Below are positions 9,086 through 63,656 of a stretch of 64,000 bases of DNA, piece by piece. Each line of letters begins with the position of its first letter. The first letter of the stretch is position 1. Origin of the DNA: Escherichia phage vB_EcoM_ESCO8; sequence record OM386653.1. One strand, given 5' to 3'. The notes under the pieces were generated by a model. That model was not told the DNA's origin. It searched no databases and saw only the letters and a program-made list of their open reading frames with translations. Both the position numbers and the translations under genes were made by a program.

Positions 9086-9167
9086 TGGCCGGGGTGACAG
9101 GATTCGAACCTGCATACTCCAATTACTCGGTTAACGCCTGATTAGAAGTCAGGTGAGATACACCCCG
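9086..9167 (-). tRNA. Atypical tRNA-like gene (UCU-type anticodon hairpin, no canonical D arm)
   Basis: Perfect 7-bp acceptor and canonical T-arm TTCGAAT; internal hairpin CCTGA-CTTCTAA-TCAGG. Confidence 0.35.
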
Positions 9168-9178
9168 TTTTCATAACG

Positions 9179-9208
9179 ACTATAACAAAAAAACTAAGTA
9201 AATGTCAA
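9179..9208 (-). promoter_or_regulatory. Sigma70-like promoter candidate for tRNA array (TTGACA-N18-TATAGT)
   Basis: Read on reverse complement; -10 ends ~12 nt upstream of the first tRNA-like gene. Confidence 0.35.
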
Positions 9209-9224
9209 GACATTTTTTAGGTGT

Positions 9225-9310
9225 TGGTGCAAGTGGAGGGATTCGAACCCTCAATCATTTAAGCGTTGCGTTTTAAGCACAATGTGTATCACCAATTCCA
9301 CCACACTTGC
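9225..9310 (-). tRNA. tRNA-Leu(UAA), type II
   Basis: Perfect acceptor, T-loop TTCGAAT, anticodon loop CTTAAAA. Confidence 0.6.
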
Positions 9311-9341
9311 ATATAGGAGATGCATAGCACCTCCTTTTAAA

Positions 9342-9417
9342 TGGTGGTTCCCCAGGGTTACAATCCCTGCCCTCGACACTTATGAGGTGTGCGCTCTCGT
9401 CAGTGAGCTATGGAACC
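9342..9417 (-). tRNA. tRNA with CAU anticodon, non-canonical T-loop
   Basis: D-arm GCTC/GAGC, anticodon loop CTCATAA, T-loop ATTGTAA. Confidence 0.45.
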
Positions 9418-22260: not shown

Positions 22261-22263
22261 TAC

Positions 22264-22293
22264 TTGACTTACTAATTTAATATGTGTTAATAT
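22264..22293 (+). promoter_or_regulatory. Sigma70-like promoter candidate (TTGACT-N18-TAATAT)
   Basis: Hexamers upstream of 22336. Confidence 0.35.
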
Positions 22294-22335
22294 GCCTACC
22301 TACTTAGTTAGGTGGGCTTTTAAGGAGACACACCA

Positions 22336-24635: not shown

Positions 24636-24665
24636 AAAAAGGGGCGAAAGCCCCTTTATTTTTGG
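24636..24665 (+). terminator. Rho-independent terminator (GGGGC-GAAA-GCCCC + T-run)
   Basis: Stem-loop followed by TTTATTTTT. Confidence 0.7.
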
Positions 24666-27981: not shown

Positions 27982-27998
27982 TCAACTTAAAATTATAG

Positions 27999-28027
27999 TT
28001 GACTTTTAATTGAGATTCGTGTAGTAT
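27999..28027 (+). promoter_or_regulatory. Sigma70-like promoter candidate (TTGACT-N17-TAGTAT)
   Basis: Hexamers upstream of 28079. Confidence 0.35.
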
Positions 28028-28078
28028 AGGCTAACGTTAGGAGAGCTATGCTCTCCTTAAAAGAGAGAAGGAGAATTT

Positions 28079-49367: not shown

Positions 49368-49406
49368 ACAAAAGCCCCTAGAAGCGATTCTAGGGGCTTT
49401 ATTTTA
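49368..49406. terminator. Bidirectional terminator at convergent junction (GCCCCTAG-loop-CTAGGGGC)
   Basis: 8-bp perfect stem flanked by A-run and T-run. Confidence 0.7.
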
Positions 49407-49740: not shown

Positions 49741-49769
49741 CATACAAGAAAACCCGCCGGAGCGGGTTT
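49741..49769 (-). terminator. Rho-independent terminator on minus strand (AACCCGC-CGGA-GCGGGTT)
   Basis: Stem-loop followed by T-run on minus strand. Confidence 0.6.
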
Positions 49770-51834: not shown

Positions 51835-52017
51835 TTATTCTTCCTCCTTCACTTCTTCAACTTTACGAAGCATACGTTTATCAAATGTAGCTTTCTGTAG
51901 TTGTTCATTAACATCAAACCATACCACTTCGCAAGTATCATAAGTAGATACCATTACAGTCATTAACATTTCTTCACTGGCAAGACGTACAATATCACCT
52001 GTTTTAATATTTACCAT
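51835..52017 (-). CDS. Hypothetical protein
   Basis: ORF track. Confidence 0.4.
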   Translation of the reverse strand: MVNIKTGDIVRLASEEMLMTVMVSTYDTCEVVWFDVNEQLQKATFDKRMLRKVEEVKEEE

Positions 52018-52421
52018 AACTCCTCCAGAAGTTTACCAAGTTTAGTTTTAAATTCATTATCCCACGCTATACGAACTATGTCAAGATCACCTTGTGCATT
52101 ACGTTTTGTATCTAAGTAGTAACCACCATGCTCATAGCGGTGTTTTATATGCTCGATCAGACGTTCTTTACCACTCTTGGATAAATAGTCATCAAATTCC
52201 CCATTGAAAAGGTCTAAGATTGTTTGTCTATTATCTCCTAGTTGGGTGATTCTAAAACTAATCAAAGATCCCTGTAAACCTATATCTGTTTGTTTAAGAG
52301 AAAACCCATGACCAAAGCCGCCTGTAACTATAACAAGCGGTTTTCCTGTGATAGAGCTTTTAATAACATCTTGCTTAGGTTCTGCCAAAGATGTTAGAAA
52401 CTCTTTTAACCATTTGAACAT
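52011..52421 (-). CDS. Hypothetical protein
   Basis: ORF track. Confidence 0.5.
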   Translation of the reverse strand: MFKWLKEFLTSLAEPKQDVIKSSITGKPLVIVTGGFGHGFSLKQTDIGLQGSLISFRITQLGDNRQTILDLFNGEFDDYLSKSGKERLIEHIKHRYEHGGYYLDTKRNAQGDLDIVRIAWDNEFKTKLGKLLEELW

Positions 52422-52526
52422 AAACTCTCCTGTGTGGCGTGGCTTTGCCTAAGCGCCGAAGGCGCGGATCAAATATAAGCTGAATTTATTACGCCCAGGT
52501 AGCCAGGGCGCATAAATATCAGAAAT

Positions 52527-52775
52527 TTACCATCGAATAACTATTCGAGTAAAGTTTTCATCGTAATGAGATGTTTCTGTATCAATAAAAGTTAAAAAAC
52601 CTTCAGCATCCAAGCTAACTTTTACGAAAGTTGGATAAAGCGTGTATATAGCAGCTTCTCTGTCTCCATCTTTAGCTGCTCTTTCAATATACGCGTAGAT
52701 GTTTTGTAAACTCTCCTTTGCTTTGTTAAGTTCTGCGTTTTCTGCCAGTTCTCTCATTTTATCTGCTACAGTCAT
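52527..52775 (-). CDS. Hypothetical protein
   Basis: ORF track. Confidence 0.45.
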   Translation of the reverse strand: MTVADKMRELAENAELNKAKESLQNIYAYIERAAKDGDREAAIYTLYPTFVKVSLDAEGFLTFIDTETSHYDENFTRIVIRW

Positions 52776-53044
52776 TTGTCAGTATCCTTTTCAATAAAGC
52801 CTGTGGTTTTACAAGGTACACATTCATACATTTGTCCAACATCTGCAACCACCCAACCCATTCCATTGCAATAAGGACAGATTGTTTTGTTCTCTTTAGC
52901 ATACACAGCCAGAAGTCTTTCTTCTAGCTTGTTGTAATCAGCAAGAAGAACATAGTCTCCTTCTGGATCTGGTACAATATCACATTGACCAGCAGCACCT
53001 TGGCTGTACACCTCTAAACCATATCGTGTAACCATTATCCCCAC
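52772..53044 (-). CDS. Small Cys-containing protein (CDIVxDPxG family)
   Basis: ORF track; paralog of 57550..57774. Confidence 0.45.
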   Translation of the reverse strand: MGIMVTRYGLEVYSQGAAGQCDIVPDPEGDYVLLADYNKLEERLLAVYAKENKTICPYCNGMGWVVADVGQMYECVPCKTTGFIEKDTDK

Positions 53045-53253
53045 TCCGCAATCAGTTTTGGATTTTCTGCACGAGAATAGAATGTTGTAATGTCACCGTA
53101 AGTGTACTCTTGTTCCGACAGTTTTACAAGAGAGATCATTTCACGATCTGGAGTACCAGGAATCCAGTCAAATACAGCAACGCCACGTGGTGTTACATAG
53201 AAACCAGATGTATTACCCGTAAACTTATCTTTTCCTTTATATAATTTGTACAC
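53035..53253 (-). CDS. Hypothetical protein
   Basis: ORF track. Confidence 0.45.
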   Translation of the reverse strand: MYKLYKGKDKFTGNTSGFYVTPRGVAVFDWIPGTPDREMISLVKLSEQEYTYGDITTFYSRAENPKLIAEWG

Positions 53254-58372: not shown

Positions 58373-58672
58373 TTAATGCCAATCTACGATCACTGAATCT
58401 ACAAAACCCTCTTTGGTGTTTAAAGCATACACCTTACTAAGCCCACGCTCTCGTAGTGTTTCCATAGCAAGATCAATCAAATCAACTTGTCGTTTCTTTG
58501 CTTGTTCATTTTTTGGATAGTCATCCAAACCGAAAACAGACGGTTTAAATGCTTTGGAGTATTTGCCAGTCTTAGCCTGATCATAACAGTCCTGAATAAT
58601 TTCCTCAATAGGAAACCATAAACCTTCTCCACTTTGCTTTGCAATACAACGCAGTTTTTCTGTAACAGTCAT
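58373..58672 (-). CDS. Hypothetical protein
   Basis: ORF track. Confidence 0.45.
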   Translation of the reverse strand: MTVTEKLRCIAKQSGEGLWFPIEEIIQDCYDQAKTGKYSKAFKPSVFGLDDYPKNEQAKKRQVDLIDLAMETLRERGLSKVYALNTKEGFVDSVIVDWH

Positions 58673-58881
58673 TCTTCCTCTCCTTTCAATTTACACTCAA
58701 AGATACCATTCTTAATGTTATCTGTCAAATAAAGACTATCTTCTATCTCTTCTTTTGTATACACATAAGCCTCCTTTTCCACGTCTGTCAGACCTTGCAT
58801 CGGAGCTAGTAGCCACCAGCTCCGCCAGTCAAACATAGGAGACTTATCAGATACACGAAGAATGTATCTGTCATTACACAT
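58669..58881 (-). CDS. Hypothetical protein
   Basis: ORF track. Confidence 0.45.
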   Translation of the reverse strand: MCNDRYILRVSDKSPMFDWRSWWLLAPMQGLTDVEKEAYVYTKEEIEDSLYLTDNIKNGIFECKLKGEEE

Positions 58882-58884
58882 ATA

Positions 58885-59337
58885 TTATACGATGTTCACA
58901 CTAATATCTGCAACACCAACAAGAGAATAGATTTCAACTACACTCTGTGTACGATCCAGCTTGTAACGTTTCGCCTCTTTTTCAACTTCCTCATGGGAGA
59001 TGGTTTCCATGATCGGAACTCCATCCACTACAAGCAGGTATTTCTCTTCGTGTTTACTTTTTGGTGCTTCCTCTAAGACTTCTACAAAATACTCAAACTC
59101 ACTTTTTGCAAGCAACGTGTAACACTGAAGAAAGTCTCCTTCATTTTGAGCGATAATTTCTTGTTCTCCTGCTAAGGATTGCAAAGCAGTGACACCATAC
59201 CAATCATCCACATCTAATACACGAAAATAGGAATCACCTAAAAAAGAAGCAATCCTACTATTGCACTCAGACACATTAGCAAACTTACGGATATAAGATG
59301 CGTTCTTAAAACGATACACTTTACCAATTTCAAACAT
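58885..59337 (-). CDS. Hypothetical protein
   Basis: ORF track. Confidence 0.5.
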   Translation of the reverse strand: MFEIGKVYRFKNASYIRKFANVSECNSRIASFLGDSYFRVLDVDDWYGVTALQSLAGEQEIIAQNEGDFLQCYTLLAKSEFEYFVEVLEEAPKSKHEEKYLLVVDGVPIMETISHEEVEKEAKRYKLDRTQSVVEIYSLVGVADISVNIV

Positions 59338-61218: not shown

Positions 61219-62840
61219 CTGTTACAAGAACAGCAACATAGGAACATCATTAATGAAGGATTTAGTATAGGATTTCCCTATCAATTATTCTATATATACC
61301 TATTATTTTTAACACACCCCTTTGTACATAATATAGACAAATAAATATCTATGCCACAAAAATTTTCCGGTATACCCGATTTATTTCGACACACCCCCTT
61401 TTCATAAACGTAAAGTCAATAATATCAATAACTTGCCGCAAAATACTGCTCGCTTGCGAGAGGTGCTTAACGCGATTTTCAGCGCCCCCCGATTTCTGCC
61501 GACCGTCCCCCTCAAATATCAATGAGAATTATTATCATTTGCATTATCATTCAATGACTTATAAGACTTTTGATTATTTTCTGAGCAAGAAAGGCACTAC
61601 TCACAACAAAACAGATAAATTCTAAGTAAATCAATGGCTTGGCATTTCTAAACATCTATATACACCTTGCCAAATGAAATGATCTGGCGTGAAATAGTGC
61701 CACCCGTGGAAGATAGCTGATAATGATTCTCATTTGCATACTTTCTGTACTATAAAACCGACTAAAAATCAAGATAATTCTATTTTATTGCGCTTTTAAG
61801 AAAGTAGGCTCAACAAATGGTAAGTTATATTGCAACAAATAGGGATAGTTATGCCCGACAAATAACAACAATAGTATGAAAAATCATCTATTCGGATGTA
61901 AATAATTTTGCGCAATAGCACTGTGTTCCCATAGCGCCCCCTGGAGGGTGGCGCATTATGATCATCAATGTCATTATTCACCATGTTTATTATTGCATAG
62001 CTTATATTATAGCCAATGTTCTAAACATTAGCTAATAATAACGCACCGCAACAATGTAAGGGAATACAATATACCATGTATATTGTTGCGCTTGCAATTG
62101 TTGCAAGCTACATAAGCACAGATAATAACTATCGGTGATGGTTATTATGTGGGGTGTGTAGTTGCGTTATTATTAGCCGCCTATGTGTCCGGCATAGGCT
62201 GCTAATGATACGCTTGCGAATTATATTTCTTGTTATAGTTATTGTATGGAATGATTACTGTATGAAATGATTATTTAGGTAATAGATAGGAAGGTAAAGA
62301 TTAGATCATAAATAGATAGGATATTAATTATTTAGTAATGTTACTAACAATTTAATAGTTACTTTGTGCAACAATTCGATAGATTATAGTTATAGTTTTA
62401 AAGGTTAGATAGATTATATTTAGCTTAGTAATGATTTATATTGGTTATTGTTGTTTAATATAAGGTTATCAATGAGATAGTAACAGTAAGTTATAAATAA
62501 AGGTGAGATAATTAGTTTTAATTTAGTTAGATAACTTATTATTTTATAGGTTAGATGGTCATAAGTTAAGAATGATTATCATTATTGCATTATGCAGTTT
62601 ATTGCATAAATAATCAGCTATAAATAAGAATGATTATCATTTAAGAGGAAAGACAAGAAAAAGGCTGTTTTTTCCCGATAGTTACATTGAGAAATTAAAA
62701 ATAAGCGGTCTAAAACACGCTGTAAGCGCCTTATGATCTTCATGGTATGGTTGTTCATCTGCTCCTTGATTAGCTCGATACCGCGATCTATTCACTTTTT
62801 TCGGTGAACGTTTTTGATAGGTAAAAGCTATCATATTTAT

Positions 62841-63347: not shown

Positions 63348-63656
63348 TTATTTTTCATAGAATTTTTCTACTGTGATATTCTTCCCAGTGGGATTAGCTA
63401 CTTTCAAAATTTTATCATGTACTGGACGCCCAAAAGAATAAGATCCGTATACAGTAAACCAATAATCACCGTCAGGCTGTACTATCACCGCTGCATAGGG
63501 TACGCCTTTTTCGTTATTGCTGACATAATAGATCACATTGCCGTTAATAGCCTCAGCGCGTTTAATTTGTTCGATCATGATATGATTCCTATATTGAGCG
63601 GGAAACCATTTCCCGCCTACGTGATAAATAATAATGTAAGCGTGATCCGGTGTCAA
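63348..63656 (-). CDS. Hypothetical protein (GC-richer accessory gene)
   Basis: ORF track. Confidence 0.45.
   Translation of the reverse strand: MTPDHAYIIIYHVGGKWFPAQYRNHIMIEQIKRAEAINGNVIYYVSNNEKGVPYAAVIVQPDGDYWFTVYGSYSFGRPVHDKILKVANPTGKNITVEKFYEK

Follow-up and report, generated by a model that had tools for sequence, protein, structure and literature searches.

The 105-nt spacer at positions 52422-52526 of the 64,000-nt stretch of Escherichia phage vB_EcoM_ESCO8 analysed here (OM386653.1; the whole stretch is referred to as the window) is a real, conserved, genus-specific and single-copy structured element of a familiar kind, that of the intercistronic hairpins of phage early operons. It is flanked by two small minus-strand open reading frames (ORFs), 52527-52775 (82 residues) upstream and 52011-52421 (136 residues) downstream, which are homologues of gp026 and gp027 of phage phi92. 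Our favoured reading, to which we give a probability of roughly 0.35, is that the spacer may serve as an RNA-level punctuation element in a polycistronic early transcript. An earlier note on this DNA had described the gap between the two genes, two GC-rich hairpins within it and its contrast with the surrounding sequence, all of which were reproduced, and had proposed a regulatory RNA element, a processing site or a repeat of foreign origin.

On the transcribed strand the spacer and its borders read TAA-AUUU-[CUGAUAUUUAUGCGCCCUGGCUACCUGGGCGUAAUAAAUUCAG]-CUUAUAUUUGAUCC-[GCGCCUUCGGCGC]-UUAGGCAAAGCCACGCCACAC-AGGAG-AGUUU-AUG. In plus-strand notation the two hairpins are GCGCC-GAA-GGCGC at 52453-52465 and CGCCC-AGGTAGCCA-GGGCG at 52492-52510, and they lie 27 nt apart. 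The second of these, which is the first to be transcribed, had been under-called: it forms the top of an imperfect 43-nt hairpin (hairpin 1; 52480-52522, minus strand) with 18 base pairs, two 1-nt bulges and one U·U internal loop; CUA forms its terminal loop, and the stem is AU-rich in its lower and GC-rich in its upper part. The predicted folding energy of this extended hairpin is -18.6 kcal/mol, which none of 200 shuffled sequences equalled (z = -4.57), and its pair probabilities are 0.84-1.0 except for one pair at 0.49. The GC-rich core taken separately (GCGCCC-U-GG-CUA-CC-U-GGGCGU; 52491-52511, minus strand) folds at -11.9 kcal/mol with z = -2.39. Hairpin 2 (GCGCC-UUC-GGCGC; 52453-52465, minus strand) has a 5-bp all-GC stem closed by a triloop and ends 31 nt ahead of the gp027 AUG; its energy is about -7 to -8.5 kcal/mol, with z = -2.64 and pair probabilities of 0.985-0.999. 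The two are joined by a 14-nt AU-rich linker, CUUAUAUUUGAUCC (52466-52479, minus strand), which is predicted to be single-stranded (unpaired probability 0.55-0.97) and contains, besides a lone TATATT resembling a -10 element, the sequence AU↓AUU, which fits the core motif of RNase E, RN↓WUU. From hairpin 2 to the Shine-Dalgarno sequence of gp027 (AGGAG; 52427-52431, minus strand; annotated as a ribosome-binding site in phi92) runs a mostly unpaired C/A-rich segment, UUAGGCAAAGCCACGCCACAC (52432-52452, minus strand). When the fold was computed in a 405-nt context both hairpins held pair probabilities above 0.85-0.99 and the linker stayed single-stranded in the prediction.

The spacer is unusual for its surroundings, with a G+C content of 49% against approximately 37% in the window, which is the highest value among the 59 gaps that measure 35 nt or more. 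All-GC stems 5 bp or longer are themselves strongly enriched in the 64 kb, with 18 hits (approximately 16 distinct hairpins) against 0.43 in first-order Markov simulations. The comparison with shuffled controls that the earlier note had put forward as a check gave a divided answer: hairpin 1 folds clearly better than its shuffles, but the spacer as a whole is only marginal against its own composition (z = -1.86, with 6 of 200 shuffles as good), and its 3' half taken whole is unremarkable (z = -0.73). The fold of the whole spacer is nevertheless within the best 0.6% of all 105-nt windows in the sequence.

The element was found in all 55 of 55 Justusliebigvirus genomes, at one place per record, and is 97-100% identical there. 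To describe its variation, the window was aligned with 12 relatives picked for maximal divergence (13 sequences in total). The spacer contains five substituted columns and one 1-nt insertion; the 5/105 substituted columns (4.8%) compare with 70/346 (20.2%) at third positions of codons in the two neighbouring genes (binomial p = 6 × 10^-6), so that the spacer is about four times less variable than these positions and equals the first and second codon positions (4.0%) in its rate. Over positions 62-94 (numbering from 52526), which take in hairpin 2 and the C/A-rich segment, 0 of 33 sites vary, against the third-position rate of 20% (p = 6 × 10^-4): hairpin 2 is unchanged across the 13 sequences, and the C/A-rich segment is unchanged save for its last base, 52432 (C/T). 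In extended hairpin 1, 17 of the 18 pairs never change and the remaining one goes from G·U to A-U. None of the six variants breaks a pair, five of them falling in a bulge, the linker or the Shine-Dalgarno region; by our estimate, such a structure-neutral placement of all six changes would have a chance of roughly 5% if they were random. One of them, A>G at 52426, extends the Shine-Dalgarno sequence of gp027 to AGGAGG.

These structures suggest how the spacer might work, with the nuclease and mRNA-stability steps being our inference from its architecture. The 43-nt hairpin, which would form 4 nt past the gp026 stop codon, could block 3'-to-5' exonucleases and so shield the upstream gp024-gp026 message. 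Because it lacks a U-tract, it would not be expected to release RNA polymerase efficiently. At approximately 18 bp it is also a possible site for host RNase III. The AU-rich linker, if it remains single-stranded, would offer a site for RNase E-type cleavage at AU↓AUU, and cleavage there would leave the short GC hairpin close to the 5' end newly created on the gp027 message, where it could slow 5'-end-dependent decay; a similar role as 5' stabilizer may be played by the GC hairpins found behind consensus early promoters at other places in the phage. As a net effect, the cistrons on either side would become independent of each other in amount and lifetime.

Each of these steps has a parallel in a known system. 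The early mRNA of phage T7 carries the intercistronic RNase III hairpins R0.3-R1.3. Like hairpin 1, these are stable hairpins of approximately 20 bp, interrupted by bulges or an internal loop, that stand between the cistrons of a polycistronic early message and lack a U-tract; the 3' hairpin that they leave on the upstream message protects it. The two do not resemble each other in sequence, T7 has several such sites whereas this phage has a single element of this form, and here another, short hairpin and a conserved leader rich in C and A come after it. For the linker, the core motif RN↓WUU in a single-stranded AU-rich context was defined for RNase E by Chao et al. (2017; PMC5222698), and the -71 site of T4 gene 32 is an RNase E processing site flanked by stem-loops (reviewed in PMC3014915). 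The spacer shares with such sites an AU-rich single strand with AU↓AUU, bracketed by stable hairpins and placed upstream of a translation start in a polycistronic phage mRNA, but here the resemblance is a motif match that chance could give. Hairpin 2, a short and very stable GC stem upstream of a Shine-Dalgarno sequence, resembles the hairpins after the early promoters of this phage and also the ompA-type 5'-terminal stem-loops reportedly described as stabilizing by Emory, Bouvet and Belasco in 1992. It differs from the latter in that it would become 5'-proximal only after the putative cleavage, and approximately 9 unpaired nucleotides would then precede it.

Several observations weigh against this interpretation. 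There is no covariation, 22 of the 23 pairs never varying in the 13-sequence alignment; this is because the element is confined to one closely related genus, and the case for the structure consequently rests on thermodynamics and constraint rather than on compensatory changes. Diverged copies were sought through the homologues of gp027 in phages, IMG/VR, metagenomes and a 5.8-billion protein set with contig look-ups, but outside the genus all of the upstream spacers were unrelated, so that no covariation test was possible. Two other intergenic gaps in the block are equally conserved; the constraint is thus not peculiar to this spacer and its conservation does not point to one function. The RNase E motif, AUAUU at spacer positions 51-55 (52472-52476), has unpaired probabilities of 0.78-0.97, but by our estimate approximately 0.3 matches would be expected by chance in 14 nt. 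Hairpin 1 is borderline for RNase III, which favours a mostly regular duplex spanning roughly two turns (about 20 bp or longer), since its 18 bp are broken by two bulges and a 1 × 1 loop. The fold is equally stable on the plus strand, so that a role for the structure at the DNA level is also conceivable. Finally, the searchable literature yielded no transcript-end, cleavage or stability data for any Justusliebigvirus and no transcript map of a phi92-like phage. The suggestion of a regulatory RNA element or processing site is partly supported and still the most probable one: it is favoured by a structure that is real, conserved below the synonymous rate and free of terminator and promoter marks, and it gained no support from covariation.

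The hairpins of the spacer are stable GC-rich stem-loops and, like the intrinsic terminators of this phage (of the GGGGC-GAAA-GCCCC and CCCGC-TTCG-GCGGG types), the spacer has a GC-clamped stem directly past a stop codon; hairpin 2 even resembles the C(UUCG)G type minus one base. The terminators of the first type, with which the earlier note had rightly contrasted the spacer, lie at 24641, 37728 and 49012 and are each followed by a T-run, and most of the all-GC hairpins of the window have a T-run on at least one side, whereas the two in the spacer have none on either strand. With a U-tract taken as at least five U in the 8 nt directly 3' of the stem, neither the tail of the hairpin 1 core, UAAUAAAUUC, nor that of hairpin 2, UUAGGCAAAG, contains one, and the plus-strand tails CAUAAAUAUC and GGAUCAAAUA likewise have no T-run. 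The sole tail with five U in eight, CUUAUAUU, follows the extended AU-based stem. The spacer is also missing from the terminator scan, and a canonical intrinsic terminator was rejected.

A leaky attenuator or pause site, at which hairpin 1 and the A/U stretch would stop or pause some RNA polymerases and thereby reduce or delay the expression of gp027 and the following genes relative to gp024-gp026, is an unlikely but serious alternative. It would account for a GC-rich stem directly past a stop codon, for the run of nine nucleotides after the core stem that are all A/U (UAAUAAAUU) and for the five U in the tail of the extended stem, and in a sister lineage the same position is taken by a canonical terminator-like hairpin. 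In addition, reporter assays showed efficient termination at stem-loops from the promoter-early stem-loop (PeSL) cassettes that T4-type phages carry (Arbiol et al., 2010; PMC2839356). The terminators of the phage itself, however, all have clear T-runs and the scan that lists them passes over the spacer; the AU-rich base of the extended stem is unfavourable to hairpin-driven release, and an attenuator leaves hairpin 2 and the invariant segment downstream of it unexplained.

The spacer also contains no recognizable promoter. Among the 50 sites listed as sigma-70 promoters (-35/-10 with 16-18 bp spacing, at least 9 of 12 matches) none lies in 52422-52526, and the TATATT in the linker, which matches five of the six positions of a -10 element, has ACCTGG (0/6) at the -35 position. 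This bears on the comparison with the PeSL cassettes, which we found described for T4-like myoviruses only (PMC2839356). As in a PeSL, a GC-rich intergenic stem-loop stands beside the Shine-Dalgarno sequence of a small early gene, and the site is a boundary between modules where gene order varies among related phages. The two features that define a PeSL, a strong sigma-70-like early promoter and repeated copies, are both absent from the spacer.

True PeSL-like cassettes do occur elsewhere in this phage. The closest match to the 1.4-kb locus is Escherichia phage vB-Eco-KMB37, and the GC hairpins in its complete genome fall into two classes: canonical terminators and a repeated cassette. The cassette, of which the other early block (L022; KMB37 135.9-145.1 kb) contains at least 12 copies, consists of TTGACA-17-TAnnAT, approximately 12 nt, a GC hairpin, approximately 23 nt and ATG, the hairpins being GCGGGAAAUGGUUUCCCGC / GCGGGAAATGGTTTCCCGC with the variants GCGGCAATAGTGCCGC and GCGGGAACTATTCCCGC. 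One copy lies in the window at 63576-63656 on the minus strand (TTGACA 63651-63656, TATTAT 63628-63633, hairpin 63598-63616, ATG 63576-63578). The position of hairpin 2, 31 nt ahead of its AUG, is comparable to that of the cassette hairpins, which speaks for the punctuation reading, but no promoter precedes it. The same grammar of a promoter and a 5' hairpin is seen in the middle-gene block, where promoter-plus-hairpin leaders with TTGACT-17-TAATAT-like and TTGACT-17-TAGTAT elements lie on the plus strand at 22261-22335 and 27982-28078; their hairpins before the Shine-Dalgarno sequence are CCTACCTACTTAGTTAGGTGGG and AGGAGAGC-TAT-GCTCTCCT.

A PeSL-like composite is also found at the position of the spacer in the lineage of phages phiWec188 and phiWec181. 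Here the region upstream of the gp027 orthologue reads TTGACA-[ACACCCUC-UUCG-GAGGGUGU]-UAUUGU, or TTGACA-CCCTCTTCGGAGGGTGT-TATTGT as DNA (L002 and L003, 1140-1200; L010, 1439-1500; L027, 78-139), in which promoter-like hexamers (TTGACA-17-TATTGT) exactly enclose an 8-bp UUCG hairpin whose tail is U-rich. Homologues of gp027 at 41-51% identity occur in Phapecoctavirus and related contigs. Besides this composite, their upstream regions, all unrelated to the spacer, comprise 17 nt in ESCO13, 8 nt in Citrobacter phage Tr1, a divergent junction in a Klebsiella phage and an unrelated 84-nt spacer with its own hairpin in one metagenomic contig. In ESCO13-type Phapecoctavirus (L004 2199-2807, L011) the gp027 homologue has those of gp024 and gp025 on its downstream side, whereas in this phage the two lie upstream (52772-53253). 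The spacer is therefore a gene-order breakpoint, at which the sister lineage has an explicit transcript boundary; this boundary, too, is in keeping with punctuation.

This raises the alternative of a terminator-promoter cassette that has decayed or been remodelled at a junction of recombination, in which a PeSL-like ancestor shuffled the gp027 module and little function now remains beyond the ribosome-binding site. It is consistent with the synteny breakpoint, with the genus-specific nature of gp026, with the at least four different contexts upstream of gp027 homologues and with the lone TATATT 6 nt ahead of hairpin 2. By eye, TTGATC followed by the GC hairpin (TTCGG loop) and T is also approximately 58% like the phiWec188-type TTGACA-hairpin(TTCGG)-TATTGT, although this resemblance is too short to prove homology. 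A relic of this type would, however, hardly be expected to vary four times less than synonymous sites, to keep 33 consecutive bases invariant or to have stems that are never broken, and we consider it quite unlikely.

A further explanation is a protein-binding operator in DNA or RNA, in which either the imperfect palindrome GCGCCCTGG-CTA-CCTGGGCGT or the RNA hairpins would be bound by an early phage protein that regulates the transcription or translation of gp027. The half-sites are symmetric at seven of nine positions and 3 bp apart, the fold is equally good on both strands, and the -10-like TATATT would put a start site on the first base of hairpin 2. Neighbouring genes are also labelled 'potential transcription regulator' in the phi92 and BASEL records. 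These labels have no support, since the Pfam hits are not significant, the PHROG family is of unknown function and the confident gp027 model has no fold match, and we judge an operator to be improbable. It is very improbable that the spacer is a cis-acting regulatory RNA new to this phage group, such as a two-hairpin module that modifies RNA polymerase during transcription, a put- or nut-like antiterminator for terminators lying further on in the block, or a site for an early protein that times the switch from gp024-gp026 to gp027-gp041, with the long hairpin possibly freed as a stable small RNA.

We give almost no credence to long-range translational coupling, in which a helix between the end of gp026 (52568-52585) and the Shine-Dalgarno sequence and AUG of gp027 (52414-52429) would close a three-way junction and be opened by ribosomes finishing gp026. 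The helix has a predicted probability of 0.84-0.93 in contexts of 225-455 nt, and two natural variants retain the pairing through G·U. In longer contexts, however, the probability falls to 0.1-0.3, the variant 52569 T>C breaks one pair, and the duplex energy of -11.7 kcal/mol is average among 127 gene starts each paired with their own upstream 200 nt (mean -12.2, s.d. 2.7, rank 62/127). As it is no better than that of an average gene start, a helix sequestering the Shine-Dalgarno sequence was rejected.

The other categories that were considered did not describe the spacer either. The proposal of a foreign repeat gained no support from window mismatch searches, blastn against phages and exact scans of genome and viral collections, which, chance 20-mer hits apart, gave a single locus per Justusliebigvirus genome, and a repeat, REP or MITE-like element was rejected. 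The search for further copies that the earlier note had called for found none in the window, nor in the reconstructed 148.5-kb genome of KMB37, which shares no second k-mer of at least 14 nt with the element (the longest is 13 nt, approximately as expected by chance), nor among 5,426 E. coli genomes. Across 596 Gb of prokaryotic genomes there are just four occurrences of the hairpin 1 20-mer, all of them in high-GC organisms that are unrelated, and this is about as many as chance would give. No described RNA family matched: with Rfam 15 at E ≤ 10, the sole overlapping model was Acido-Lenti-1 (13.7 bits against a gathering threshold of 37; E = 9.3). A hidden small gene was rejected, there being no sense-strand ORF of at least 20 residues in the spacer; its only ATG, in ..TTATGCGCC.., opens a 14-codon ORF and is ATA in SD2 and PHB05. 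Hairpin 1 contains two CCWGG sites, yet the genome shows no avoidance of CCWGG (201 sites observed, 171 expected), and a restriction or Dcm oddity was discarded. Sigma-54 and boxA-like motifs were checked by eye and set aside on account of unsuitable spacing and sequence. A search with ARAGORN for tRNA and tmRNA genes found none near 52.4 kb; all 16 tRNA genes that it identified are clustered at 6630-9417 on the minus strand and include three tRNA-Met, two tRNA-Ser and two tRNA-Leu genes.

If the spacer does punctuate the early mRNA, it would represent an unannotated post-transcriptional control point in the early region of phi92-like phages, which are present in therapeutic and BASEL-type collections. 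It would also be a compact natural module, combining a 3' barrier, a cleavage site and a 5' stabilizer, that sets the relative expression of adjacent cistrons. For RNA biology this would be nothing fundamentally new, as such intercistronic hairpins have been known since T7 and T4. Two by-products are perhaps more useful: the PeSL-like promoter-hairpin cassettes outside T4-like phages and the gene-order breakpoint located precisely at the spacer.

Over the 1.4 kb around the spacer, 55 records of phi92-like myoviruses (Justusliebigvirus, Stephanstirmvirinae) show 97-99.7% identity to the window, and in KMB37 the locus lies approximately 8 kb inside an 11-kb one-strand block of approximately 40 small early genes that terminates at a strong terminator (window counterpart 49750-49769). 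The record of phi92 is richly annotated, and its sole annotation in the gap between gp026 and gp027 is the ribosome-binding site of gp027. The protein encoded by the gp026 homologue, whose TAA stop codon lies 4 nt before the long hairpin, is confined to the 55 Justusliebigvirus records; a Pfam search gave no significant match, and its PHROG family is of unknown function. For the gp027 homologue, the first cistron past the element, a confident AF2 model was obtained that has no fold match. Four GenBank records titled 'UNVERIFIED Campylobacter phage' (MG065639, MG065645, MG065656 and MG065689) are approximately 98% identical to this coliphage group at the locus and are classified as Justusliebigvirus; their host label is probably wrong or the result of contamination.

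Some further features of the window were noted in passing. A perfect 13-bp bidirectional terminator, AAAGCCCCTAGAA-GCGA-TTCTAGGGGCTTT (49371-49400), has T-runs on both strands and lies where the plus-strand block meets the minus-strand early block. At the long AT-rich head of the early block, the non-coding regions 61523-61795 and 61985-62681 contain two matches to the E. coli Fur-box consensus GATAATGATAATCATTATC at 61719-61737 and 62568-62586 (minus strand, three mismatches, 0.03 expected), together with further GATAATCATT-like repeats; the significance of these matches is perhaps overstated by the shuffle control, the region being very AT-rich. A strong structure of 151 nt lies at 58740-58890 on the minus strand, inside a 70-residue ORF (58669-58881); it folds at -48.8 kcal/mol (z = -4.24, equalled by 0 of 200 shuffles) and includes a 10-bp GGAGCUGGUG/CUACUAGCUCC hairpin. 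The most stable 105-nt windows of the sequence (-45.8 kcal/mol) are plus-strand windows in the non-coding stretch 62056-62265, upstream of the early block, around GCAGCCTATGCCGGACACATAGGCGGC.
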